A stretch of DNA of 32,000 bases from Candidatus Methanoperedens sp. (GCA_041494705.1 JBGQBI010000004.1:30001-62000); one strand, 5' to 3'; numbered from the stretch's first letter, positions 1,211 through 28,018 are shown. Translations and numbers: made by a program. The notes: a model not told the origin generated them from the sequence alone.

Positions 1211-3499
1211 ATGAATGAACTACGCGAAAAAGTGCGCGGATTCATAGCTGAATTTGCAAACCCGGATGAAAAGGATATCCAGAAATTCATAAGCGATTTA
1301 GCTTTGCAAAACCCATCTCTTGATTCTGAAAATTTTAAGAAGAACCTGGCAAAGCTTGTTAAAAATGCAAAGGAACTGGCGGCTTATGAAAAGGAATATT
1401 CTTTATTGGATGCGAAATCGCCCGGGAATACGGAACTTGCAGAGGTTTTAAAAGAAGCAAGGACGGGGCAGGAAAACCTGGAAGATATTTCAGATGAATT
1501 GAAAACCGCAAAAAAAATCTTAAAATCGGGAGGCTCAGGGAAAACCAGGAAAAAACCAGCCGGAGAGGGCAAGGAAAAATCCACAACAGAAAAGGGCGGC
1601 GCGGTATTAACCGGACAAGAGAAAGAACCGCTAGAATTAGAAGAGCCTGCCGGGAAAATTGAGCCGGGTGAAGAGGGAGACAAAACTGTAAAAAAGAAGG
1701 GCAAAAGAAAAGAGATAAAACAGGAAGCAAAACCGGAAAAAGAGAGGCTGCCGGAAGAAGTGGAAAGCCTGATGCACCACCTTGATTCTGATGCGACAAA
1801 GGATATTATCAAAGAAAAGATGACACCGGAAAAGCATGCCGCTTTTGAACATCTTGAAGAAAAATTACTGTCAGATGTCGAAACCGGCATAAAGAAGCTG
1901 AAAGATGTCCCGTTTGAAAAATCGCATGAATCTATATTAGACCGGTTAAAATCCTATTTAACAAAAGAAGCGGAAGAAATAGAGGCATACCAGCAGTCGC
2001 TGCACGGTGAGCTTGTCACTTTTGAAGGCATGGAAGGATACAAGGAAATTGAACGTTACTGGGTGAATGAACCATATTCCTTTGTGGTAATCCTGTTCAA
2101 TCCTGAAAAAAATTCATATCTGTATTATGTGGCAGAGCCGAAACTCTCCGATTTCGAAGACCTGCTTCTCAGGGAAATCAAAGACCGGCTCAAGGACGTC
2201 CTTCTTTTTGAAGATGTAAAGACTGACGGGGATAAGGAAAAAATCCTGACGGACAAAGTCAGAAAGGTAATAAAAGATTATGCAATCGATATAACCCCTT
2301 TAACCCTTGAAAAAATACTGTATTATACGCGAAGGGACTTCATTAAATTCGGTAAGATTGACCCGCTTATGCATGACAACGGGATAGAAGATATTTCCGC
2401 TAACGGCTATGATATTCCGATTTACCTTTATCATAAGAAATACACCAATCTGCCCACAAACATATTTTTTACAGAAAGCGACCTGGATTCTTATGTGATA
2501 AGGCTTGCCCAGAGATGCGGTAAACATGTCTCGGTAGCGGAACCGATGGTGGATGCCACCATGCCGGACGGTTCCCGTATCCAGATGACACTCGGCACGG
2601 AAGTGACAACCCACGGAGCGACATTTACAATCAGGAAGTTCAGCGAAGTCCCGTTAACACCTGTTGACCTGATTAACTGGAATACGTTCTCGGCAGATGA
2701 AATGGCATACCTCTGGCTGTGTATCGAGAACAATAAGAGCCTGATTTTTGCAGGGGGCACGGCTTCTGGTAAGACATCATCTCTTAATGCGGTTTCCATG
2801 TTCATTCCCTGGCAGGCAAAAATAATCTCGCTTGAGGATACGCGGGAATTAAAACTGCCGCATCCGAACTGGATCCCGGGGATAACCAGGGACTCTTTCA
2901 CGGCTGACGGCAGGGGAAGTATTGATATGTACGACCTCCTCCGGGCAGCGCTTCGACAGAGACCTGAATACCTGCTGGTGGGCGAAGTCAGGGGCAAGGA
3001 AGCATTGACGCTCTTCCAGGCGATGAGCACCGGGCATACCACGTTTTCGACGATGCACGCGGATTCGGTATCGAGCGCCATACATCGTCTTGAGAATCCC
3101 CCAATCAGCGTGCCGAGGTCGATGATTCAGGCTCTTAATATAATAAGCATCCAGGCGCAAACCTTCGTGAAAGGAAAAAGAGCACGCCGCAATATGAAGC
3201 TGGTTGAGATTACAGATATAGACCCAACGACCAGGAACATAAGGACGAACGATATTTTTGCGTGGGATGCCCTGACAGATAAATTCCACAGGGTTGGGGA
3301 GTCAAAAGCGCTGAACGAAGTAATGATAAGACGCGGATGGAATATCGGGGATTTGAAAAGAGAGCTGAGCAACAGGCAGAAAATTCTTGAGTTCATGGTA
3401 AATAACAAAATATCCGATTTCAATGCGATCGCTACCATCATTCATGATTACCAGGTTACTCCTGATAAAGTTTTAAAGAAGTTGAACATCCCCGGATGA
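1211..3499 (+). CDS. FlaI/PilB-like type IV pilus/archaellum-family secretion ATPase with a ~280-aa K/E-rich N-terminal extension
   Basis: The core from residue ~283 (YWVNEPYSFVVI...YYVAEPKLS) matches the archaeal FlaI/TadA N-domain. Walker A is GGTASGKTSSLNA, Walker B is EYLLVGEVRG, and there is a TGHTTFSTMHA His-box. Residues 1-280 are low-complexity and Lys/Glu-rich. Its stop overlaps the next start (ATGA at 3496-3499). Confidence 0.85.
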   Translation: MNELREKVRGFIAEFANPDEKDIQKFISDLALQNPSLDSENFKKNLAKLVKNAKELAAYEKEYSLLDAKSPGNTELAEVLKEARTGQENLEDISDELKTAKKILKSGGSGKTRKKPAGEGKEKSTTEKGGAVLTGQEKEPLELEEPAGKIEPGEEGDKTVKKKGKRKEIKQEAKPEKERLPEEVESLMHHLDSDATKDIIKEKMTPEKHAAFEHLEEKLLSDVETGIKKLKDVPFEKSHESILDRLKSYLTKEAEEIEAYQQSLHGELVTFEGMEGYKEIERYWVNEPYSFVVILFNPEKNSYLYYVAEPKLSDFEDLLLREIKDRLKDVLLFEDVKTDGDKEKILTDKVRKVIKDYAIDITPLTLEKILYYTRRDFIKFGKIDPLMHDNGIEDISANGYDIPIYLYHKKYTNLPTNIFFTESDLDSYVIRLAQRCGKHVSVAEPMVDATMPDGSRIQMTLGTEVTTHGATFTIRKFSEVPLTPVDLINWNTFSADEMAYLWLCIENNKSLIFAGGTASGKTSSLNAVSMFIPWQAKIISLEDTRELKLPHPNWIPGITRDSFTADGRGSIDMYDLLRAALRQRPEYLLVGEVRGKEALTLFQAMSTGHTTFSTMHADSVSSAIHRLENPPISVPRSMIQALNIISIQAQTFVKGKRARRNMKLVEITDIDPTTRNIRTNDIFAWDALTDKFHRVGESKALNEVMIRRGWNIGDLKRELSNRQKILEFMVNNKISDFNAIATIIHDYQVTPDKVLKKLNIPG

Positions 3500-5454
3500 G
3501 CGCAATGGCAAGTAAAATCGAATTTTATTTCCGGAAATTAAAGACGCTGCCATTTGTCCTGCTCGGCAAAAGGATGAAAGAAAAGAAAGACCAGTTCAGG
3601 GACCTGCGAATGGCGATGAGACAGGCGCGCATCCCCATGTCGTATGAAATGTATATTTCAAACTCATTGTTCTATTCAGTGCTGGCAGGTATTGCCGGCG
3701 CGTTCCTGGGATTAATAACAACGTATATCCTGTTCACGTTTGTCAGGCTTCCGGAAAGGCTTACGCATCTTACTTTTTCGCCAAAGACGGCATGGCTTCT
3801 CCAGTACAGGAACATCGCGATTGCGATTTTCATAGTTGGTTTTCTTGCCATCCTTTTTAGCGGGATAACGTATGCACTGTTTCTTGCCTATCCCGGATTC
3901 AAGGCCGGGGAAAGGAAAGGTGCAATCGACAGGAACCTACCCTTTGCCGTCACCTTCATGTATGCGCTGAGCAGGGGAGGCATGAACGTTATTGAAATAT
4001 TACGTTCCTTGAGCAAAAGCACGGATACGTACGGCGAAGTGGCAAGGGAAGTGGACGTCGTTGTGAGGGATATGGATTATTTCGGAAACGATTTGAGAAC
4101 CGCGCTTCACAACATCTGTGAGATTACGCCGTCTGAGAATTTCAGGGATTTAATGTATAATCTGCTGACGGTCATAGACAGCGGCGGAAATATCTCCACA
4201 TACTTCCGTGATAAATCAGAGCAATATCTAAACAGGGCCAAGATTGACCAGAAAGGATTCCTTGAAACGCTTGGATTAATTGCAGAATCCTATGTCACGG
4301 CATTCGTGGCAGGACCCCTTTTTATTATAATTCTCGGCGTGATGATGTCGGTAATGGGTTCAGGCAGCCAGGTAATGATATATGCAATAATTTATGCGGT
4401 GATACCGATAGGTTCGTTGATGTTCGTGGTGATGGTTGATATTATTACGCCCGGGGCTACCGGAGAAGCGCCGCTTCTCCCCACTCAAAGTTTTGTCGGT
4501 GAAATTGTAGTGCCTGAAACGGATGAAAAGACCGTATTTTCCAAATTCGTCAAGTCAAGAAACTCTCTCAGGATAAGAGAGATGCTTCACGACCCCTTAA
4601 AACCGCTAAAAGAAAAGCCTCTGTACTCTTTAATAATAACAGGACCGATTGCTCTTATATTTATGTTAATCTCGGTTTTTAATGCGATGAAAGCGCCGGA
4701 TTTTGTGGATTATATAGACGACAGGATAGTTTTCACCGTCTATATCCTGGTTATCCCGCTTATGATTTTCCATGAATACAAAAAGCGAAGGGAAGATAGG
4801 ATTCAGTCGCAGATACCTGATTTCTTAAAAAAACTTGCCAGTACCAATGAAACCGGCATGACGCTTCGGGATTCCATCAAATTGATGACGCACTCGGATA
4901 TCGGCTTAAGCAAGGAGATTAAGAAAATCTGGAATGATATTGAATGGGGACTTGCGATAAATGAAGCGCTCATAAGGTTTGCCAACCGCGTTAGGACGCA
5001 TCTTGTATCACGCTCGGTCACTTTATTGACAAAAGCCAACGAGTCAAGCGGGGATATAGGCGAGGTGCTGAATGTCGCTGCAAGGGATGTTGCTGCGGAA
5101 CAGGAATTGAGGAACGAGCGCAGGACTAATATGTTTATTTACGTTGTGATTATTTACATATCGTTCCTTGTATTCGTGGGTATTATATATATAATTTCTA
5201 CGACGTTCCTTTCAGAAATGGTAAAGGCCGGGGAGAAAATGTCAACAAGCGGCGGCGGGGCAGTACCTCTCAGCCTCAGCCGGGAGAAATTGAATGTATA
5301 TAACCGCATTTTTTTCCATGGCGCCCTGATTCAGGGTTTTTGCTCGGGGCTGATTGCAGGAGTGATGGGAGAAGGCAATGCCCTATCGGGATTAAAGCAT
5401 TCCGTGATAATGATAACTATCGGTTATCTCCTGTTCACGATGTTTGTGCTTTAG
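3496..5454 (+). CDS. FlaJ/TadC/PilC-like polytopic membrane platform protein (two T2SS-F-like repeats)
   Basis: 652 aa with several long hydrophobic segments alternating with two soluble helical regions (NLPFAVTFMYALSRGGMN... and IPDFLKKLASTNETGMTLRDS...) typical of FlaJ/TadC duplication. It is translationally coupled to the upstream secretion ATPase. Confidence 0.8.
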   Translation: MSAMASKIEFYFRKLKTLPFVLLGKRMKEKKDQFRDLRMAMRQARIPMSYEMYISNSLFYSVLAGIAGAFLGLITTYILFTFVRLPERLTHLTFSPKTAWLLQYRNIAIAIFIVGFLAILFSGITYALFLAYPGFKAGERKGAIDRNLPFAVTFMYALSRGGMNVIEILRSLSKSTDTYGEVAREVDVVVRDMDYFGNDLRTALHNICEITPSENFRDLMYNLLTVIDSGGNISTYFRDKSEQYLNRAKIDQKGFLETLGLIAESYVTAFVAGPLFIIILGVMMSVMGSGSQVMIYAIIYAVIPIGSLMFVVMVDIITPGATGEAPLLPTQSFVGEIVVPETDEKTVFSKFVKSRNSLRIREMLHDPLKPLKEKPLYSLIITGPIALIFMLISVFNAMKAPDFVDYIDDRIVFTVYILVIPLMIFHEYKKRREDRIQSQIPDFLKKLASTNETGMTLRDSIKLMTHSDIGLSKEIKKIWNDIEWGLAINEALIRFANRVRTHLVSRSVTLLTKANESSGDIGEVLNVAARDVAAEQELRNERRTNMFIYVVIIYISFLVFVGIIYIISTTFLSEMVKAGEKMSTSGGGAVPLSLSREKLNVYNRIFFHGALIQGFCSGLIAGVMGEGNALSGLKHSVIMITIGYLLFTMFVL

Positions 5455-5496: not shown

Positions 5497-7428
5497 ATGG
5501 GACCTTTTAAACTCGTTTCCGGTTTTGAACCGAAAGGAGACCAATCGAAAGCGATAGAGAAACTTGTTTTCGGTATAGAGCAGGGTATGAAGCACCAGAC
5601 CCTGCTCGGAGTGACAGGGTCAGGGAAAACATTCACGGTTGCGAATGTGATAAATAAAATCCAGAGACCAACCCTTGTCATTTCCCACAACAAGACCCTT
5701 GCAGCGCAGCTTTATTCCGAGTTCAGGGCTTTTTTTCCTGAAAATGCTGTTGAATATTTTGTGAGCTACTACGATTACTACCAGCCCGAGGCGTATATTC
5801 CGCAAACTGACACCTATATCGAGAAGGACGCATCAATCAACGAGGAGATAAACAGGATGCGCCTGTCTGCCACACGTTCTCTGCTTGAGCGCAGGGATGT
5901 TATTGTGGTGGCAAGCGTATCATGCATCTACGGAATCGGGTCACCGCAGGAATGGAAGGAAATGTCCATCTTGCTTAAGAAAGGCGAGAATATTGAGCGG
6001 CGGGTTTTACTTTCAAGATTTGTGGATATGCAGTATGAACGCAACGACCTTGATTTCAGCACCGGGAAATTCCGGGCGCGGGGAGACACAATCGAGGTAT
6101 TCCCGTCATATGCTTCAAACGGTATCAGGATAGAACTTTTCGGAGATGAAATCGATAAAATTTCCGAATTTGACGTCCTGACCGGAAAAACATTGAGGGA
6201 GAACGATGCAGTGGTGATATATCCGGCAAAACATTTCGTGATGCCGCAGGAAAAGATAGACGCTGCCATCGAGTCAATCGAAGCTGAACTCAGGGACAGG
6301 CTCCATGAGTTAAAATCCATGGGGAAAATTCTTGAAGCCGCCCGCCTTGAGCAGCGAACGAAATTCGATATCGAGATGATGCATGAAATCGGGTACTGCC
6401 AGGGAATAGAGAACTACAGCCGCCACATGGACGGCCGGAGGACCGGCGAGCCGCCGTACACGTTACTCGATTATTTCCCGAAAGATTATCTCATCGTTAT
6501 CGATGAATCGCATGTCACGCTCCCGCAGCTTCGGGGAATGCACGCCGGCGACCATGCAAGGAAAGAATCGCTTGTGGATTATGGTTTCAGGATGCCTTCG
6601 GCTTATGATAACCGCCCGCTGACTTTTAATGAGTTCAGTTCCAGGGTGAACCAGGTATTGTATGTATCCGCCACACCCGCTGATTATGAAATAGCAAATA
6701 GCGCGCAGGTCGTTGAACAGATTATCAGACCTACGGGACTTGTGGACCCGGAGATTGTGGTGAAACCAGTGCAGGGGCAGATAGACGATTTGATGGCAGA
6801 AATCCATGCAAAGACCGCGAAAAAATACAGGGTACTTGTCACTACGCTTACAAAAAGGATGGCAGAAGACCTGACAGAATACCTCCTGGGCGCAGGAATC
6901 AAGGCGAGGTACATGCATTCCGAGATAGAGACGCTTGAGCGCATTGAGATTATAAGGGGGCTTCGCCTTGGCGAGTTCGATGTGCTTGTGGGCATTAACC
7001 TCCTGCGCGAGGGGCTTGACCTGCCCGAGGTTGCGCTTGTGGCAATCCTTGATGCTGACAAAGAAGGCTTCCTGCGCTCTGACCGCTCGCTCTTGCAGAC
7101 AATAGGAAGAACTTCAAGGAATGTTGATGGGAAAGTTGTGATGTATGCAGACAGGATGACGGGTTCGATGCAGAGGGCGATAGATGAGACAAACCGCAGG
7201 CGGGAGAGGCAGATAGAGTATAATAAAGAGCATAATATCACCCCGCAGACCATCAGGAAGGCCGTGGAGCCGAGGGCGATAACTGAGGAAGCAGCGCCGT
7301 CAAAAGAGGAGATATTCAATTATATTGTGGAACTTGAAGCTGAAATGCACAGGGCAGCGAAGAACCTTGAGTTTGAGAAGGCGGCGGAGATAAGGGATAA
7401 GATAGGGAAGTTGAGGAAGGAGATGTGA
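5497..7428 (+). CDS. uvrB: Excinuclease ABC subunit B (UvrB)
   Basis: The N-terminus [17 protein letters not shown]...[12 protein letters not shown] is canonical UvrB. It also has helicase motifs (DESH, VSATP), a beta-hairpin region ([10 protein letters not shown]) and the C-terminal UVR domain ([13 protein letters not shown]). Confidence 0.97.
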
Positions 7429-7440
7429 GTTGGCAAGCGG

Positions 7441-7470
7441 CTTTTGTTGGTTTTTGTTATTTTTTTGTTA
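7441..7470 (+). terminator. Oligo-T tracts downstream of the uvrB stop (archaeal-type terminator candidate)
   Basis: The sequence cttttgttggtttttgttatttttttgtta lies just after the stop at 7428. Archaeal termination commonly uses T-runs. Confidence 0.4.
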
Positions 7471-7476
7471 CAAAAA

Positions 7477-7484
7477 TTTAAATA
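7477..7484 (+). promoter_or_regulatory. TATA-box candidate (tttaaata) preceded by an A-rich BRE-like caaaaa, for the ATPase cassette
   Basis: The tttaaata ends 25 nt upstream of the ATG at 7509, which is consistent with a leaderless or near-leaderless archaeal transcript. A second tttaaata at 7493-7500 is too close to the ATG. Confidence 0.4.
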
Positions 7485-7508
7485 GTATGTTCTTTAAATA
7501 ATGCTTCG

Positions 7509-8876
7509 ATGGTGAAAGCTTCTCTTAAAAAGGTTTTTATTAAGAATTTCAAAAGCCTTCGTGATTGTGAAATCGACATTGGGAAATTGAACGTTGTCGT
7601 GGGGGCTAACGCCTCCGGGAAATCAAATCTGGTGGAAGTGTTCAGGCTTTTGAAAAAGATTTATGTTGATAAAGACCCTTTTCCGTTTCTAGAGTGGTGG
7701 GGTTATGACAATGTAGTATGGCAAAGAAAAGAAGAACTGCCGATAATTATAGGGCTGCTTTTTGATATTGAAGGTTATGATGTCTATTTTGAGACAAACT
7801 TTACTGGAACGGCGGGAAAATTTCAGATTTTGCGAGAAGTATTGGATATTAGAAGATATGTTAAGTTTGAGAAAGAGGGCGAAAAGCTTGCCATTAAACA
7901 TGATGCAAATTTTATAGATATTATTATTAAAAATCTTCATCAATATGAATCAACGTATGATAAAACCACACTAAAAAAAGAGATGAGAAAATTAACAAAA
8001 GAGACGAAAATCGAAGTAGATTTTGAACAAAGATTATTCGAAAATGTGAATATTCGTGAAGTAGTTTATGGAATCGGCGAGGGTTGGCTCACTGAAAAAA
8101 AGACCAAAAATAGATACAGATTATCTCCTGTCTGGGATAGAATAAAAATTTCTAATGAAAAAATTATAATTTTATGTCCAACTTTCAATTACAAGGTGGA
8201 GGCTTATAGTGCAGAATTACCACTATATAAAATTTCAGTAGATACAATCCTCTCAACTCTCAACAAACTATTGATTTTGTATCCACTCAATATTCGTTCG
8301 ATGAAAAACCCCCAACCTTTTCGAAGAGAAGAAATTCTCAAAGAAGATGGAAGTAATCTCGCAAGCGTATATCACACCATTTACCTCAAAAAAGGTAAAA
8401 TCCCGGAAGAAATATACAATCCCCTTTCAATGGTTTTTCCAAAAATAGATGTGCGCCCGCATCTTACTGATGATGGCAGGGTCATGATAAAGTTCTTTGA
8501 GGATGGTCTTGAACTTTTACCACCCAACACTTCTGATGGTTTCTATAAAATTTTAACTGTACTTATAGCGATTTATTTAAAACCGCCCTTGCTCATAATC
8601 GATGAAATTGAGAATTCTCTTCATCCTTCCACGTTGGAGCTCATTTTAGATACCATCGGAATAGGTGACACGCAGGCAATAATCACCACGCATTCACCGG
8701 TTGTAGTCGATATGACAGAACTAAGTAATATTATTCTGGTCGAAAAAGAACACGGAGAATCTAAATTTAAACGTATAAAAGACCCCGAAAAAATAAAGGA
8801 CTTCCTGATAGAAAAGGGCATAACTTTTAGCGAGGGCTGGATTTACGGAGACCTATTTACCGAAAAACAAGCATGA
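7509..8876 (+). CDS. ABC-type (AAA_15/AAA_21, OLD/RecF-like) ATPase, first gene of a two-gene cassette
   Basis: The N-terminal IKNFKSLRD...VVGANASGKSNLVEVF is the Walker A region of SMC/RecF/OLD-like ABC ATPases. A ~300-aa K/E/I-rich insert follows. Then come the signature-like TSDGF, Walker B LLIIDEIENSLHP and H-loop ITTHSP. Confidence 0.8.
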   Translation: MVKASLKKVFIKNFKSLRDCEIDIGKLNVVVGANASGKSNLVEVFRLLKKIYVDKDPFPFLEWWGYDNVVWQRKEELPIIIGLLFDIEGYDVYFETNFTGTAGKFQILREVLDIRRYVKFEKEGEKLAIKHDANFIDIIIKNLHQYESTYDKTTLKKEMRKLTKETKIEVDFEQRLFENVNIREVVYGIGEGWLTEKKTKNRYRLSPVWDRIKISNEKIIILCPTFNYKVEAYSAELPLYKISVDTILSTLNKLLILYPLNIRSMKNPQPFRREEILKEDGSNLASVYHTIYLKKGKIPEEIYNPLSMVFPKIDVRPHLTDDGRVMIKFFEDGLELLPPNTSDGFYKILTVLIAIYLKPPLLIIDEIENSLHPSTLELILDTIGIGDTQAIITTHSPVVVDMTELSNIILVEKEHGESKFKRIKDPEKIKDFLIEKGITFSEGWIYGDLFTEKQA

Positions 8877-9370
8877 ACATTAAAATAATCTCCGAAGACG
8901 ATTACGGCGCCGAATTCTTAAAGAACGTAATCGCACAGCTTAAAACTAAAAAGCTGGTTGGAAACGTAACCGTAAAAGGCTCAAAGCCCATGCGCCCTTT
9001 ATGTAATTTCAAACTCGACAGGATTTTGAAGAGTTTCGATACCTCATGTGATAAGATAATAATCATGCTTGATTCTGACGGTCCTGAAAAAACTGAAAAC
9101 CGGCGCACAAATATTGAACGTCATGTGCCGGATGACTTGGAAACTCCAGTCGAAATTGTCCTGACAGATTATGAAATTGAAGAGTGGATATGTATCAGTA
9201 AAAATCTAAACTGGAAGAACTCAAAGCCTTCTGAAAAGCTAAAAATTGAATTTGGGTATGTAAAAAGCAGTCTTCCAAAGTACGCCAACGAATTGGATTT
9301 TGATGAACTTCAAAAGAAATGCAAATCCTTTAAGGCTTTTCTTGATGCTTTGATGCCATTGAAGAAATAA
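8873..9370 (+). CDS. Small acidic protein with a Toprim-like/DUF4276-like motif pattern, second gene of the cassette
   Basis: Its start overlaps the ATPase stop (ATGA at 8873-8876). The N-terminal strand IKIISEDDYGAEFLKNVI resembles the (V/I)EG-x-x-E-x-x-F start of DUF4276/RloB/Toprim proteins. A DxD-like IIIMLDSDG sits at residues 63-71 and a further acidic patch DYEIEEWI near residue 100. The fold assignment is inference. Confidence 0.6.
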   Translation: MNIKIISEDDYGAEFLKNVIAQLKTKKLVGNVTVKGSKPMRPLCNFKLDRILKSFDTSCDKIIIMLDSDGPEKTENRRTNIERHVPDDLETPVEIVLTDYEIEEWICISKNLNWKNSKPSEKLKIEFGYVKSSLPKYANELDFDELQKKCKSFKAFLDALMPLKK

Positions 9371-9384
9371 ACCAATTCCTCATC

Positions 9385-10185
9385 TCAAATCAACCCCTCA
9401 AGCACCCTCCTCCCTGCCCTGACATCCTCAATTGAAAACACTTCAAGATTATAGACACCATCAAAATCAAGCTCTTTGAGGACGGAAAAATCTATACCAC
9501 CTGTTCCCGGCGCCCCATGAAAGTCCCCCCAGTACTTCTCAGTCAGCATGCCGCCGTTATCGTGGACATGAACATGAACCACATATTCCTTGATTTCACG
9601 CGCAAAATCCCGCAGTTTCGACGCATCCCCTCCGCATGTCAGGTTTGCATGGCCTATATCGAATGTTGCTCTCATGTTCGGTGAGCCTATTTGCTCTATG
9701 GCATTTATGAGTTCAGATGCCAGGCAGCACAGGTTCTCCGGGTCTGTCCCTTCCTTGTTCTCAAGTCCGAGCATCACATTCCTATCTTCCGCAAACCGTG
9801 CAATCCGGGATAATCCTGATACCATACTGTCAAAAGACTTATTCCTGTCCATATCCATCCTGCCCGGGTGGATAACCACAACACTTGAACCAAGTTCCTC
9901 AGCCATCGTTATACTTTCCTTGAGGAGTCTTTCCTGGGTATCATTTAACCTCGCAGTATCAACAACCAGTTCATTAGGATAATTGGGAGCGTCGCTGAAA
10001 TATGGGGCATGGATAGATGTGGATAACTCGCATGTTGAAAGGAAATCCCGGATTTTTCCAACCCTGCTTTTTATTAGTTTTGTTCCTTCATATACACCGA
10101 GTTTTGGAATGTATAACTCAATTGATTCAACAACATGTTCCAATTCAGGAAAACTCCCTGCAAAAGATGATGCTCCGATTATCAT
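9385..10185 (-). CDS. Sugar phosphate isomerase/epimerase (xylose isomerase-like TIM barrel, AP endonuclease 2 family)
   Basis: Motifs VVIHPG, LGLEN, FDIGHAN and HVHVHDN match the metal ligands of this TIM-barrel family. The ORF runs to 10350, but the first 55 codons are AT-rich and Cys/Tyr/Ile-biased, so I prefer the Met at 10185 (MIIGASSF...). Confidence 0.75.
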   Translation of the reverse strand: MIIGASSFAGSFPELEHVVESIELYIPKLGVYEGTKLIKSRVGKIRDFLSTCELSTSIHAPYFSDAPNYPNELVVDTARLNDTQERLLKESITMAEELGSSVVVIHPGRMDMDRNKSFDSMVSGLSRIARFAEDRNVMLGLENKEGTDPENLCCLASELINAIEQIGSPNMRATFDIGHANLTCGGDASKLRDFAREIKEYVVHVHVHDNGGMLTEKYWGDFHGAPGTGGIDFSVLKELDFDGVYNLEVFSIEDVRAGRRVLEGLI

Positions 10186-10750
10186 TCCCTGTACGAGGCA
10201 ATATCTGTATATTATGATTTCGATGCGCAATTGCACTGTTTTTGTTATCGCAGCAAATTCTTGTGTATCCTTTGAAAGTTTGCAGGATATTATAGAATAA
10301 TTAAAATTGGACTCATAATAATCATAAAGGCAAGCGTTATATAATATCATGATTAATACTTTGATTTGCTATACGCTGGATACTATAGTAGGAGTTAAAA
10401 ACGTGAAACCCATATCAGGCTGCGCTGTCGGTAAAGGATTATTTGCTTCATTTGCCGGTTATGAGATGACCGATACACTGCCATTGCGCCTTGTGACCGA
10501 ATGTAAGCGAAAACTCACAAAGGATTGCAGTATTGATATTTGCCCGAGATTCAGAAGCGGGATATCGGGTTCGCACAGGATATCCTGGAGAAATGAAGGC
10601 GCTAAACTTTGATGATTTGATTTAAACACGAATATTGCGGTCATTTAGCCTGCCTTTTTTATCTACTGTTTTTATCAGGGAATCATCATCTTAAACAATA
10701 ATGATATTTTTTTATATAATCAGGATGTTTCTGGAACTGGAGCAATACTG

Positions 10751-11032
10751 ATGGCTACAAAACAGGGCATTCACAAATCCAGGGGAGGTCTCATAAGAGC
10801 ATTCGCTGTCGCAGAAAACGGAATAATCAAGGATATAACTATTTCAGGGGATTTTTTTATGTTCCCCGAAGAAGCGCTCTTCATAATACTGGAAAAATTA
10901 AAAGGTACGCCTGCAAACCATGCAGCCCTCCTGAAAAATATAGAAGAAATATATAAAAAGGAAAATATCCAATCCCCGGGAACGTCGCCTTCTGATTTTG
11001 CTGAATCCATAATGAAAGCTTTGGAGGGATAG
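10751..11032 (+). CDS. lplB: Lipoate-protein ligase C-terminal accessory domain as a stand-alone protein (LplB-like)
   Basis: It is 93 aa with GGLIRAFAVAENGIIKDITISGDFFMFPEE, characteristic of the LplA C-terminal domain. It lies 2 nt upstream of the catalytic-domain gene, the split arrangement known from Thermoplasma. Confidence 0.7.
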   Translation: MATKQGIHKSRGGLIRAFAVAENGIIKDITISGDFFMFPEEALFIILEKLKGTPANHAALLKNIEEIYKKENIQSPGTSPSDFAESIMKALEG

Positions 11033-12808: not shown

Positions 12809-13175
12809 GGATGGCGTTAATGCTGCCGTCCTGTCCAGGCCTGTTCGTCACGCGGGCGCTTCCAATCTCGGTTTTGATTATTGAGCCTTTTGTCACGATA
12901 TTTCGCCTGACATAGTGAATATTTGCCGGGTTTCCCGTGACGGTCTCGACCTTAACCTTCTTTGAGGTCTTTGTTTTCGGGTCTGTTACTATTGCGGTAT
13001 TATCCCTCAAGAGCCGGACTTTTTCCTGACCGCCAAGTGTTTTCACGGTCTTCCTTATGGTTTCCCCAAGATGGGTATTTGCGGTTTCCCCGCCGAGTTC
13101 GAATTTTCTCTTGCCTCTTGACTGAATCAGCCTTCCGCCTGTGTATTTGCGAATTGATCTTCCCTGGAATTTCAT
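12789..13175 (-). CDS. rps8e: 30S ribosomal protein S8e
   Basis: The protein aligns along its full length with archaeal S8e: QGRS-RK-TGG, KRKFELGGE, EKVRLLRDNTA-V-DPKT, NPAN-HYVRRNI-TKG, RPGQDG. A GAGGA Shine-Dalgarno lies upstream. Confidence 0.95.
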   Translation of the reverse strand: MKFQGRSIRKYTGGRLIQSRGKRKFELGGETANTHLGETIRKTVKTLGGQEKVRLLRDNTAIVTDPKTKTSKKVKVETVTGNPANIHYVRRNIVTKGSIIKTEIGSARVTNRPGQDGSINAILIASTS

Positions 13176-13322
13176 AATTATCCTCTTTGAACTTAAATTA
13201 TAGAATAATGATTTTCCTTCATAATGCAGTTATGTAATAAAAACCTTCCCTTAATCAAACCAGAGAAAGGCTTATTATGAATGGAATTCGACTGTTAATA
13301 AAGAATAAAAGGGCGTGAATAA

Positions 13323-13700
13323 GTGTTCAGGAGATTTTTGGAATCTTATATAAATGTTTGCAATAATATCGTAACGGAATCCGCTAATTCCGTTTTGATG
13401 TTTGAAGCAGGGGAGCAGGCCGCGCTTGATATTAAAACCTCAAAAATCGAAGATATCCATCCCGAATTTGAAAAAGAGGGGCTTACAACATCCATAGAAA
13501 TCACAGAAAAAAGGGTTATATTTCATGTTAAAGGATTATCTTTCAGAAATAATAAATGTGAATATTGCGATATTTTTAGAGGATTCTTCGGAGGACTGGC
13601 AAAAAAACATATTGACCCCAGGTTTTATTGCAAAAAAGGCGCAGAATGTGTGATTGAGGGAGGAGACCAGTGTATTTTTGTCGCGGAGCTGATAGAATGA
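13323..13700 (+). CDS. V4R-domain (4-vinyl reductase-like) small protein
   Basis: The C-terminal Cys/Gly pattern CEYCDIFRGFFGGL...CVIEGGDQCIFV resembles V4R domains. The start codon is GTG and the start is uncertain. Confidence 0.5.
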   Translation: MFRRFLESYINVCNNIVTESANSVLMFEAGEQAALDIKTSKIEDIHPEFEKEGLTTSIEITEKRVIFHVKGLSFRNNKCEYCDIFRGFFGGLAKKHIDPRFYCKKGAECVIEGGDQCIFVAELIE

Positions 13701-13787
13701 AAAAATTTGACACACGACCTTCAAGCCAGAATAGAATTTTTTGGAATTTTGGATAGGAATTAGGTTAATCTCTCTAAAAGGTGTCCA

Positions 13788-14396
13788 ATGCCAAAAGATT
13801 TGAAAGTAACCCTCAGCGACATAGAATATGAGATTCTTAAAAAGGTGAAAATAGTCGAGGGGGAAGATGGCGAGAAACTCAGGAACCTTTTAAGGCTGTA
13901 TGTTTCCACGATACCTGAATTAAAATCATCCGAATACGCTTTAAGAAGGGTTGAAAACAAGGACAAAATAGAAAAAATCTTAAGGGACGTCTGGGCTGCG
14001 TATGAAATCACGGATTACCCGACAGAAAAATGGAGTGAAGATAAAATCAACAAGTTACACAGCGACCTTGTTGAAATCAATGTTCTTGTTAAAACAGGTG
14101 AAAAACAGTATATACCTTCCAATAAATTCAGGAGCCTTTTCAAAATGCTGCTCCATGATATTACAAATGAATCCAGGGATATGGATGAATATTCTGCAGC
14201 ATGTATGGCTACAATCCAGTTATTGGCGGAGTTCGGCGCAGGAACCTTAAGCAAAGAAACAATAAGGGATGCGACGATTTTAATAAACGAAGGCTGGATG
14301 TTCGTTTACGCAACAGCCATGAAGAAGGCACGGGAGTTCATGAAAACCAAAAAAATGTTCCCGGAAGCGCAAATGCCTGTTCCTGAAGTATCATAG
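13788..14396 (+). CDS. Hypothetical protein (202 aa, helical, no recognised motif)
   Basis: A long ORF with coding-like composition. Only short competing antisense ORFs are present. Confidence 0.55.
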   Translation: MPKDLKVTLSDIEYEILKKVKIVEGEDGEKLRNLLRLYVSTIPELKSSEYALRRVENKDKIEKILRDVWAAYEITDYPTEKWSEDKINKLHSDLVEINVLVKTGEKQYIPSNKFRSLFKMLLHDITNESRDMDEYSAACMATIQLLAEFGAGTLSKETIRDATILINEGWMFVYATAMKKAREFMKTKKMFPEAQMPVPEVS

Positions 14397-27076: not shown

Positions 27077-27531
27077 AGCCTTACACCGGTTTTCTTAAAT
27101 TCCCGTTCACTGAAAAGAATGCTGTAATCCTTAATGCCTGTAGCAATGGATATTTCCCTGGCGATTTTTTCGCATTCATCGCGCGAATAGGCATGTATCA
27201 TGGTAAAAAGGTTGTATCTCCAGTCAGGAAAGCGCGGGCGTTCATAACAATGGGTCACTTCAGGAAAACCAGCCATAATAGCTCCGACCGTTTCCACTTT
27301 CTCATCCGGGACATTCCATGTGCACATGGCATTTGCGGTTATCCCGATAGCCCGGTGACCGATAGATGCGCCAAAACGCCGTATGACCCCGTCTTTTAAA
27401 AGGTTATCCAGCCTTCTCAAAACCTCCTCTTCGGGGAGCGCCAGTTCTCTGGCTATTTGTTTGAACGGTTCGGATACTATTGGTATCCCGTCTTGCGTTG
27501 ACTTTAATAATTTTTTATCAATTTCGTCCAT
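27073..27531 (-). CDS. Siroheme decarboxylase subunit (AhbA/AhbB, NirD/H/L-like, AsnC/Lrp fold)
   Basis: The pattern IDKKLL...QDGIPIVSEPF..IA.EL...EEEVL.RL..L...GVIRRFGA..., then EVTHCYERP and YNLFTMIH, is characteristic of Ahb/NirDL proteins. It sits in an operon with sirC and hemA. Confidence 0.8.
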   Translation of the reverse strand: MDEIDKKLLKSTQDGIPIVSEPFKQIARELALPEEEVLRRLDNLLKDGVIRRFGASIGHRAIGITANAMCTWNVPDEKVETVGAIMAGFPEVTHCYERPRFPDWRYNLFTMIHAYSRDECEKIAREISIATGIKDYSILFSEREFKKTGVRL

Positions 27532-27590
27532 GTTAGCCGATAAATTTATTTAACCAATGTGCATATTATTACTTAATAAGTTCGGTAAGG

Positions 27591-27620
27591 ATAGGAATAA
27601 ACGATATTAGATATTCCTAT
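27591..27620. promoter_or_regulatory. 9-bp inverted repeat (ataggaata / tattcctat, 12-nt spacer) in the divergent intergenic region
   Basis: Read directly. It lies between the ahb-sirC-hemA operon start (27531, minus strand) and the membrane protein gene (27633, plus strand). An operator role is speculative. Confidence 0.25.
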
Positions 27621-27632
27621 AAATAAATTAAT

Positions 27633-27989
27633 ATGATATACCTCAAAAACGCCCTGGAAATGATTGATGAAGTAGTAGTTATCCCTTTGGCCATAATTAC
27701 TTTCTTTTTATTAATATACATAGTCGTATATCTTTATAAAAAAGACACTGATGTAATAAGATCCAGGATTTTTTTGAAATATGACGAGTTTAAAAAAGCA
27801 TTTTTATTGCTGGCTGTTTTTGCTTTTATCTTGGTCTTACACGTATCATTGATTTTTGTTCCGCATTTCTATTCATTCGAGGATTCTCCTTTAATCGAGG
27901 ATTTCCAGAGGTTTTTCGGATTGATTCTGGTTCTGGTAATGATAACTTTTGTGTATATAATTTTTAGAAATATACGAAACGGCAAATAG
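27633..27989 (+). CDS. Small hypothetical membrane protein (about three TM segments)
   Basis: A 118-aa ORF with three clear hydrophobic stretches. The region is AT-rich. Confidence 0.5.
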   Translation: MIYLKNALEMIDEVVVIPLAIITFFLLIYIVVYLYKKDTDVIRSRIFLKYDEFKKAFLLLAVFAFILVLHVSLIFVPHFYSFEDSPLIEDFQRFFGLILVLVMITFVYIIFRNIRNGK

Positions 27990-28018
27990 ATGTATTCCTT
28001 TCGCAACTTTTTAATAGA

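Follow-up and report, generated by a model that had tools for sequence, protein, structure and literature searches.

A 32,000-nucleotide window of Candidatus Methanoperedens sp. (GCA_041494705.1 JBGQBI010000004.1:30001-62000; positions below are counted in this window unless another record is named) contains, between uvrB and a convergent xylose-isomerase-like gene, a compact cassette of two overlapping genes, here termed g1 and g2. The first encodes an ABC ATPase and the second a small Toprim-like protein. The cassette is probably an autonomous, constitutively transcribed two-gene conflict system that pairs an ABC-ATPase sensor with a Toprim-like nuclease, and a distant archaeal relative of HEC-01, MADS, AbiL, and PARIS. 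This reading is favored because of domain homology, strict gene coupling, a promoter of its own, patchy distribution, non-native composition, dispensability, and ancient, shuffled alleles of an insert in g1. The open reading frames (ORFs), the ATGA overlap, the TATA box, and the 14-nucleotide spacer that a first-pass annotation had placed here from the sequence were all found again at the same positions (Table 1), and the pattern exceeds what would arise by chance.

Table 1. Features of the two-gene cassette and its immediate neighbors in the 32,000-nucleotide window
Feature	Positions	Strand	Description
g1	7509..8876	+	455-residue ABC ATPase, AAA_21/AAA_15 type; presumed sensor/regulator
Walker A/P-loop GANASGKS (residues 32-39)	7602..7625	+	G32, N34, A35, S36, G37, and K38 invariant in 63 homologs
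Hypervariable insert of g1 (residues ~125-250)	7881..8258	+	Drop in identity; presumed specificity/trigger-recognition domain
ABC signature-like S342-D343-G344	8532..8540	+	D343 and G344 invariant in 63 homologs
Walker B LLIIDEIE (residues 361-368), catalytic E366	8589..8612	+	D365, E366, and E368 invariant in 63 homologs
H-loop TTHSP (residues 393-397)	8685..8699	+	T393, T394, H395, S396, and P397 invariant in 63 homologs
C-terminal tail of g1 (residues 396-455)	8694..8873	+	Conserved; co-varies with g2; candidate g2-binding surface
ATGA overlap, g1 stop/g2 start	8873..8876	+	Translational coupling
g2	8873..9370	+	165-residue mini Toprim-like protein, DUF4276/RloB branch; presumed metal-dependent nuclease effector
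E8-D9, C-terminal end of strand b1 (residues 2-7)	8894..8899	+	Position of the Toprim catalytic Glu; invariant in 68 homologs
D67-S-D69, DxD at end of strand b3 (residues 61-67)	9071..9079	+	Invariant in 68 homologs
Y100-EIEEWIC-107, acidic patch after strand b4	9170..9193	+	E101, E103, E104, W105, and C107 invariant in 68 homologs
Promoter block	7467..7508	+	Purine-rich ACAAAAA resembling a B recognition element, then TATA box TTTAAATA (7477-7484), then a second TTTAAATA (7493-7500)
uvrB	5497..7428	+	Directly upstream of the cassette; stop codon 7426-7428
T-rich tracts (T4, T5, and T7 runs)	7441..7468	+	Just 3' of the uvrB stop; seen in the sequence
Spacer, 14 nucleotides	9371..9384	.	From the g2 stop to the stop of the convergent gene
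Xylose-isomerase-like TIM-barrel gene (Pfam AP_endonuc_2)	9385..10350	-	Convergent with the cassette

The ABC ATPase

The g1 protein passes the gathering thresholds of two Pfam models, AAA_21 (PF13304; E 1.2e-26, 94.9 bits, threshold 27) and AAA_15 (PF13175; E 9.4e-18, 65.4 bits, threshold 32.1), in agreement with its first-pass assignment to ABC ATPases of this type. The Walker A, SDG, Walker B, and H-loop motifs recognized at that stage are invariant or nearly so across 63 homologs. In libraries of defense genes, the best matches are the PADLOC models HEC-01A (2.7e-36) and AriA (1.5e-27), together with PDC-M07A, AbiLi (1.1e-26), and mad3. The NCBIfam models MADS3 (3.2e-26, 92.5 bits, equivalog cutoff 420) and PtuA (score 34.9, cutoff 500) are matched below their cutoffs, and models of Old and GajA are matched weakly.

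Structural comparison places g1 in the same company. Its AlphaFold 2 (AF2) model has an overall pLDDT (predicted local distance difference test) of 79, and a Foldseek search of the model against the PDB gave 107 matches at E<=1e-3, headed by retron/Septu PtuA, Rad50, SMC heads, and AriA, each with a probability of 1.0. The closest solved structures are PtuA chains (E ~2e-8). The TM-scores are only 0.3-0.4, and the C-terminus of the model is of low confidence; the tail has a pLDDT below 50 in the monomer model despite its high conservation.

The first-pass annotation had also allowed for a grouping of the ATPase with RecF. Against the NCBIfam RecF model (TIGR00611), g1 scores 31.8 bits, far under the cutoff of 172, and the match is limited to the N-terminal 42 residues, so that g1 does not group with RecF. 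Database records for several g1 homologs (P0287, P0300, P0308, P0326, P0334, and P0338) nevertheless carry the names "recombinase RecF" or "DNA replication and repair protein RecF". Because the score is so far below the cutoff, these names are probably misannotations, and they could mislead the reconstruction of repair pathways in anaerobic methanotrophic (ANME) archaea.

The small Toprim-like partner

The sole Pfam match of g2 is DUF4276 (PF14103; E 5.7e-5, 23.9 bits, profile positions 9-107 of 192). Although this score lies under the gathering threshold, homology to DUF4276 is supported by the relatives of g2, since the same model is matched by 42 of 68 close relatives (best 3e-6) and 22 of 95 distant representatives (best 1.4e-7). 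RloB is matched by seven of the close relatives and eight of the distant ones. Among the latter, mad4 is the commonest single model (28 of 95), about 30 match HEC-01B models (E down to 7e-7), and a few match AbiLii, ATPase-Toprim_I-B, or HEC-04; g2 itself reaches mad4 weakly (E 0.012). No Toprim_Old match was found for g2 in Pfam, and no DUF4435 or AriB match was found for g2 or for the close and distant members of its family. Both DUF4276 and RloB are members of the Toprim superfamily (PMC12065111). Judged by these profiles, g2 belongs to the Toprim-like group of DUF4276/RloB/Mad4/HEC-01B as a divergent member that falls under curated thresholds, and the matches lie within this group rather than in a non-nuclease family.

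The AF2 model of g2 (pLDDT 92.4) consists of a b1-a1-b2-a2-b3-a3-b4 core followed by five helices. The acidic motifs that the first-pass annotation had picked out could be traced through the family: E8, D9, D67, D69, E101, E103, E104, and W105 are invariant across 68 homologs, E8-D9 is conserved to at least 90% among the 95 distant representatives, and D67 and E103 are invariant there as well. The order of these residues, with a Glu after b1, a DxD at b3, and an acidic patch after b4, is the Toprim arrangement; the patch after b4 is a candidate second metal site. In BFVD, a library of viral structures, the top match to g2 is a phage RloB-like protein (probability 1.00, TMq 0.58, E 2.4e-3), accompanied by weak matches to the Toprim domains of DnaG and twinkle. 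The initial description of g2 as DUF4276/RloB-like is therefore sustained by its sole Pfam match, by the RloB matches of its family, and by its top fold match.

Gene pairing and distribution

More than 100 g2 homologs were found at 48-92% identity, and those with names come nearly all from Candidatus Methanoperedens. The g1 protein is 100% identical to one on a 2.07-Mb Methanoperedens contig that has the gene order of the window. An exhaustive g2 profile search of 1.84 billion protein representatives yielded 226 clusters, almost all of 155-175 residues, and a scan of 185,579 GTDB species genomes, which relied on two peptide motifs, yielded 56 loci, every one of them archaeal. About 27 of the 56 are of Methanoperedens type; the others belong to Thermococcus, Nitrosopumilus, Thermoplasmata, Bathyarchaeota, Altarchaeum, Helarchaeota, Archaeoglobaceae, and Desulfurococcales. 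Of ten distant g2 representatives that were looked up, the one that could be named came from Infirmifilum, also an archaeon. Cultured carriers include Thermococcus thioreducens, T. zilligii, T. sp. AM4, Pyrococcus kukulkanii, and Methanocaldococcus bathoardescens. A g1 homolog lies directly 5' of g2 in each locus for which the sequence reaches far enough, in several archaeal phyla, and the 4-nucleotide overlap is the commonest arrangement (29 of 47 loci).

The pair can occur more than once in a chromosome: OZ252243.1, labeled "Nitrosopumilus sp.", has two divergent copies (L059 and L064) about 1.2 Mb apart. In several records labeled Nitrosopumilus, the GC of the flanks is 50-63%; such values are unusually high for the genus, and the labels may be loose. 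A metagenome scan based on uvrB recovered mostly bacterial uvrB genes of ~60% identity; two loci were relevant, one with the cassette (L074) and one, a Methanoperedens-like uvrB locus, without it downstream (L073).

Insert variation, recombination, and decay

Between near-conspecific genomes, in which uvrB is 95-97% identical, the whole locus from uvrB through the pair to the isomerase gene has a nucleotide identity of ~0.90-0.97, and identity sinks to 0.45-0.65 only at window positions ~7750-8350. In two loci (L030 and L031), it falls additionally within g2, and g2 alleles are exchanged at an otherwise ~93% identical locus. At the protein level, the mean pairwise identity among 22 Methanoperedens alleles is 0.8-0.94 in the ATPase core and 0.12-0.43 in residues ~125-250. 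An insert of ~300 residues had been reported at first; that figure corresponds to the whole stretch from Walker A to the signature, whereas the variable insert proper is confined to residues ~125-250. It is predicted to be folded (AF2 pLDDT ~80-95), no real domain emerged when the segment by itself was compared with Pfam, and it is presumed to serve as a specificity or trigger-recognition domain.

The insert allele of the window is common to L039 (0.75), a locus in a different species and context, and not to L016 and L017 (0.32-0.33). Synonymous divergence (dS) is 1.9-2.8 in the insert, that is, saturated, versus ~0.35 in the flanks, and it reaches 1.5 in the exchanged g2 of L031. Because these values lie far above those of the flanks, the insert variation is ascribed to old alleles that recombination has carried about rather than to fast evolution in situ. 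The core regions of g1 (ratio of nonsynonymous to synonymous divergence, dN/dS, 0.06-0.10) and g2 (~0.2) are under purifying selection. The same pattern has arisen independently in Thermococcus, where identity is 0.80-0.95 in the g1 core, 0.18-0.29 in the insert, and 0.82-0.83 in the flanking PTH2 and TruD. As for the partner, the identity of g2 follows that of the g1 tail (Spearman rho 0.80), and not that of the N-terminal core (0.09) or the insert (-0.05), with the reservation that these pairs are phylogenetically non-independent and the coefficients descriptive only. The pattern points to separate linkage blocks within the pair; since the tail alone co-varies with g2, it is the candidate g2-binding surface.

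Disruptions affect six of the ~27 copies of Methanoperedens type and lie in g2 in five of them and in g1 in the sixth; some may be errors in the assembly of metagenome-assembled genomes. Two of the six occur in well-known enrichment-culture genomes: Candidatus M. nitroreducens Mnv1 (L028) has an apparent frameshift in g1, and Methanoperedens sp. BLZ2 (L049) has one in g2. In the remaining loci (L032, L035, L039, and L040), g2 carries a premature stop or a deletion that takes out the DxD region, the latter being the case in L039. The premature stop of L032 is a TAG codon, for which pyrrolysine read-through was considered.

More frequent inactivation of g2 than of g1 is also what would be expected of the toxic partner in a selfish addiction module, a toxin-antitoxin-like device in which the ATPase restrains a Toprim toxin, loss is harmful, and no antiviral role is served. 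A compact, translationally coupled unit of low GC with its own promoter would suit such a module, as would its stable persistence among housekeeping genes without a mobile-element context, and the Pfam entry for AAA_21 reads "putative AbiEii toxin, Type IV TA system". However, addiction fails to explain why a presumed antitoxin should carry a hypervariable, surface-like insert with old alleles in two lineages, and a search for plasmid or virus carriage found none. We regard a purely selfish module as rather unlikely, and it overlaps with an abortive-infection reading more than it excludes one.

Boundaries, promoter, and composition

The ~42 nucleotides ahead of the g1 ATG (ACAAAAATTTAAATAGTATGTTCTTTAAATAATGCT...) are near-invariant in all 22 Methanoperedens-type loci compared, regardless of the upstream gene. 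Cross-context similarity drops abruptly just 5' of the promoter block and, on the other side, stops exactly at the g2 stop codon. Given this invariant block and these sharp edges, the promoter, g1, and g2 form an autonomous transcription unit. The first TATA box lies 25-32 nucleotides ahead of the ATG, a distance that suggests an mRNA with no leader or almost none and with a transcription start predicted from the position of the box. The two identical TTTAAATA boxes are spaced 16 nucleotides, and both are kept in most Methanoperedens loci; the second could act as another TATA box or be bound by a regulator. Archaeal transcription terminates at oligo-T tracts, and those that follow the uvrB stop codon are likely a terminator that parts uvrB from the cassette.

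A shift to AT-rich DNA between the end of uvrB and the isomerase stop had been noticed at the outset, and windowed GC gives it sharp edges: GC steps from 0.455 to 0.350 on the left and from 0.325 to 0.490 on the right. Positions 7467-9370 have a GC of 0.356, where the window as a whole has a mean of 0.441, and elsewhere in the 32 kb no stretch of this length goes below 0.384. In 46 of 47 loci, the GC of the cassette is lower than that of the flanks, the difference reaching 0.22, and in essentially every relative its composition is non-native, unlike that of a conserved core feature. At the finer scale of 500-nucleotide bins, the lowest GC of the window is at 27501-28000 (0.286), and other low bins fall within 13001-14000 and 10001-11000 (0.37-0.39).

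Genomic context

The gene directly upstream, in the same orientation, is uvrB in the window and in 13 species representatives of Methanoperedens, and ~11 other Methanoperedens-type loci have different upstream genes. In Methanoperedens "RBG 1" (L001/L024:1-6380), and there alone, the pair stands divergently beside an Mre11-Rad50 (1174 residues)-NurA operon. Outside Methanoperedens, the neighbors are unrelated housekeeping genes, such as PTH2, TruD, and AspRS in Thermococcus. Among 112 neighbor proteins outside Methanoperedens, no restriction-modification, defense, or repair genes were found and only two transposases, and no methyltransferase or other mad genes were found in the flanks of any locus examined. 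The cassette is a long-resident locus, found at the same site in many Methanoperedens species and often after uvrB, and the adjacency to uvrB is best read as inherited synteny. A recently acquired island was rejected, given that near-conspecific genomes have the locus in common, with a nucleotide identity of ~93% to either side. In L035, an uncultured genome of Methanoperedens type, a 336-residue ORF without a Pfam match (L035:4224-5234, minus strand) sits between uvrB and the cassette on the opposite strand, so that this junction tolerates insertions.

These neighbors raise the alternative of an accessory module for DNA repair, in which an ATPase of SMC/Rad50/RecF-like type, together with a small Toprim nuclease, would assist UvrB in nucleotide excision repair, or else Mre11-Rad50, in Methanoperedens. 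Besides the two linkages, this idea can draw on the RecF names in public records, on the Rad50 and SMC heads among the structural neighbors of g1, and on the finding that P2 OLD senses aberrant DNA structures. However, adjacency to uvrB is specific to one lineage: it is missing from the ~11 other Methanoperedens-type loci and from every locus in Thermococcus, Nitrosopumilus, Thermoplasmata, and elsewhere, and uvrB occurs without the cassette in L073. Linkage to uvrB or Mre11-Rad50 was accordingly rejected as a family-wide functional clue, as it is confined to part of Methanoperedens (8 contexts, 56 loci). Even in the window, uvrB is parted from g1 by T-rich tracts and by a separate, invariant promoter, and the match to the RecF model is far under its cutoff. 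A hypervariable, recombining insert, exchanged partner alleles, six decayed copies, and a persistently non-native GC are not expected of a repair factor; these traits fit better with an immune sensor-effector pair, the function being deduced from them. A role in repair is considered improbable.

Similarly, the translation-related neighbors in Thermococcus would suit a housekeeping role in RNA processing or at the ribosome, with g2 as an enzyme like RNase M5, whose Toprim fold (PMC12065111) offers a precedent, and g1 as its ABC-ATPase partner. The distribution is too patchy for such a role, at 56 loci in 185,579 species genomes and 226 clusters in 1.84 billion proteins, and the six decayed copies, the hypervariable insert, and the lineage-dependent contexts speak against it too. 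We hold it to be very improbable. Repair and RNA processing are both contradicted by the lineage-specific context, the hypervariability, and the decay of the genes.

As for the adjoining genes themselves, the longest ORF of the AP_endonuc_2 gene has 321 residues, and its orthologs are called at 266-277. Translation probably begins at an internal Met (around ...GMIIGASSF...), and the first ~50 codons of the longer ORF are likely non-coding. The region upstream of uvrB (including 3496-5454) encodes a PilB3/T2SSE ATPase, a T2SSF membrane protein, and a ParA/MinD-like protein, that is, type IV pilus/archaellum-like assembly, an ordinary housekeeping context. Scans of the whole window for tRNA genes and Rfam families returned nothing.

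Proposed function and its implications

Several observations weigh against a conflict system. The DUF4276 score of g2 (23.9) is under the gathering threshold of 30.2, and its matches to HEC-01B (E 0.006, 14.6 bits) and MADS4 (NCBIfam; E 0.0027, 17.8 bits, cutoff 160) are weak. A Foldseek search of the g2 model against the PDB gave generic alpha/beta folds, with no match at E<=1e-3 and no Toprim near the top; the g2 family profile found no match among PDB sequences; and hhalign of the family against P2 Old gave a probability of 0.2, which is uninformative, as the template is a single sequence. Direct structural confirmation of a Toprim fold is thus weak. HEC-01, the nearest catalogued system, was inactive in its first test (10.1101/2024.01.29.577857). 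The pair lies outside defense islands and stays at one locus for long periods, and no relative turned up in searches of virus, phage, and plasmid records; these traits are less typical of defense genes. To these are added the repair genes beside it in part of Methanoperedens, namely uvrB in the window and 13 species representatives and the Mre11-Rad50-NurA operon of "RBG 1". Proteins rich in Lys, Asn, Ile, and Glu could partly account for the low GC. Finally, the archaeal clade is known from sequences alone, and its defense function is deduced from them.

A conflict system nevertheless remains the probable function, and a mechanism can be proposed for it. One leaderless, translationally coupled mRNA would give rise to both proteins, which would form a complex in which the ATPase, probably by means of its conserved C-terminal tail, restrains the small nuclease. 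Recognition of a trigger derived from a virus or mobile element would fall to the folded hypervariable insert (residues ~125-250), and an ATP-dependent rearrangement would then release or activate g2. With its putative metal site (E8/D9, D67/D69, and E101-E104), g2 would cut nucleic acid, and the infected cell would be halted. An ATPase that both holds a nuclease and senses a viral trigger is proposed by analogy with PARIS. The likeliest target may be tRNA, by analogy with AriB, with Septu, and with P2 OLD, which is an abortive tRNase. For the pair itself, we infer that the two proteins form a complex, that a trigger is sensed, that g2 is a nuclease with such a target, and that the role is antiviral.

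A more far-reaching proposal can be put forward only tentatively, and we would not yet wager on it. The pair may be an archaea-specific, minimal innate-immune module at fixed loci, in which balancing (frequency-dependent) selection maintains ancient insert alleles and homologous recombination across the conserved core carries them between species, independently in Methanoperedens and Thermococcus; its effector would then be the smallest known Toprim-type nuclease (~160 residues), possibly a tRNase. If so, the locus would be an archaeal analog of polymorphic immune-receptor loci, not a mobile defense island.

Apart from CRISPR and restriction-modification, the antiviral immunity of archaea is poorly charted. 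An uncultured and globally important methane oxidizer, Methanoperedens (ANME-2d) lives alongside viruses and large extrachromosomal elements. The clade falls under the thresholds of Pfam, NCBIfam, and PADLOC and is probably missed by current defense catalogues. The sensor-effector pair is very small, and the ~125-residue specificity-like domain of its sensor, with a natural allelic series, offers a handle on how the ABC ATPases that serve as sensors in the OLD/PARIS/Septu class recognize triggers. Cultured Thermococcales and Methanocaldococcus carry the family too, and some of them are genetically tractable, which makes the hypothesis directly testable. More generally, a defense-like module does not require a mobile island and may reside for long at one site under an invariant promoter of its own.

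Relation to known systems

HEC-01, listed in PADLOC as "Hma-embedded candidate 01", pairs an ABC ATPase with a TOPRIM protein, and its HEC-01B component is described as TOPRIM-like with a metal site of the OLD type (10.1101/2024.01.29.577857). One HEC-01, a cold-seep representative, protected Escherichia coli (PMC12881386). The pair described here has the same two-gene architecture and order, HEC-01A is the best defense match of g1 (2.7e-36), and the g2 family matches several HEC-01B models. Unlike HEC-01, it lies among housekeeping genes in all contexts examined, not embedded in an Hma or other defense locus, and it was found only in archaea; the g2 of the window reaches HEC-01B at an E of 0.006 only. 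The combination of AAA15/21 with DUF4276 corresponds to MADS3-4 (PMC11464382), in which Mad3 is an AAA_15/21 ATPase and Mad4 a DUF4276 protein. The matches of g1 and g2 to the MADS models (3.2e-26 and 0.0027) stay far from the cutoffs (92.5 versus 420 and 17.8 versus 160), and the pair stands alone, with no methyltransferase or mad genes nearby.

AbiL, which combines AbiLi (AAA_21) with the RloB-like AbiLii, and RloA/RloB, which is linked to type I restriction-modification, likewise join an ATPase to a small Toprim-like (RloB) partner. g1 matches AbiLi, some relatives of g2 match RloB or AbiLii, and the best fold match of g2 is a phage RloB-like protein. On the other hand, g2 is nearer to DUF4276 than to RloB, its context is free of restriction-modification genes, and its hosts are archaeal. 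In PARIS, also called a "class 4 OLD", a sensor ATPase (AriA) and a Toprim effector (AriB, a DUF4435 tRNase) are encoded by separate genes, as they are here; g1 matches AriA in sequence, and the structure of AriA is among its fold matches. The trigger-sensing surfaces of AriA are poorly conserved around a conserved core, and AriA and AriB co-evolve, in parallel with the variable insert of g1 and the co-variation of its tail with g2. By contrast, g2 lacks a DUF4435 or AriB match and has 165 residues versus ~300 in AriB, and PARIS is often carried on phage satellites, whereas the pair was found on chromosomes only.

The OLD family (P2 Old, classes 1-3, and Gabija GajA) follows the same logic of an ABC ATPase with a Toprim domain, and P2 Old and g1 have P-loop (Walker A), Walker B, and H-loop segments in common. 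Yet OLD is a single fused polypeptide and the pair is two genes, and g2 has no detectable profile similarity to the Toprim of P2 Old. Because of this null comparison and of the missing solved Toprim among the Foldseek matches, g2 is placed, on present alignments, nearer to DUF4276/RloB than to OLD proper. Septu and its retron counterpart (PtuA-PtuB) also combine an ABC-ATPase sensor with a small nuclease, and PtuA provides the closest solved structures to g1. However, PtuB is an HNH nuclease, not Toprim-like, and the PtuA score of g1 is 34.9 against a cutoff of 500.

By curated criteria, the pair is not assigned to HEC-01, whose A model it matches well and whose B model it matches weakly, nor to MADS, AbiL, PARIS, or OLD; by sequence similarity, it is a distant archaea-specific relative of HEC-01, of Mad3-Mad4 of MADS, of AbiL, and of PARIS. 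The first-pass annotation had proposed a split, miniaturized OLD-like module, and the two-gene union of an ATPase with a small Toprim-like protein bears this out in form, whereas the affinity is with DUF4276/RloB rather than with OLD. It had also suggested a possibly undescribed variant. The architecture of an ATPase with DUF4276 is already catalogued (HEC-01 and MADS3-4) and will not surprise a specialist, so that "undescribed" holds for the archaeal clade only. What is new here is the restriction of the pair to archaea, the long time for which it has resided at one locus under an invariant promoter of its own, and a cleanly delimited polymorphic insert in two orders.

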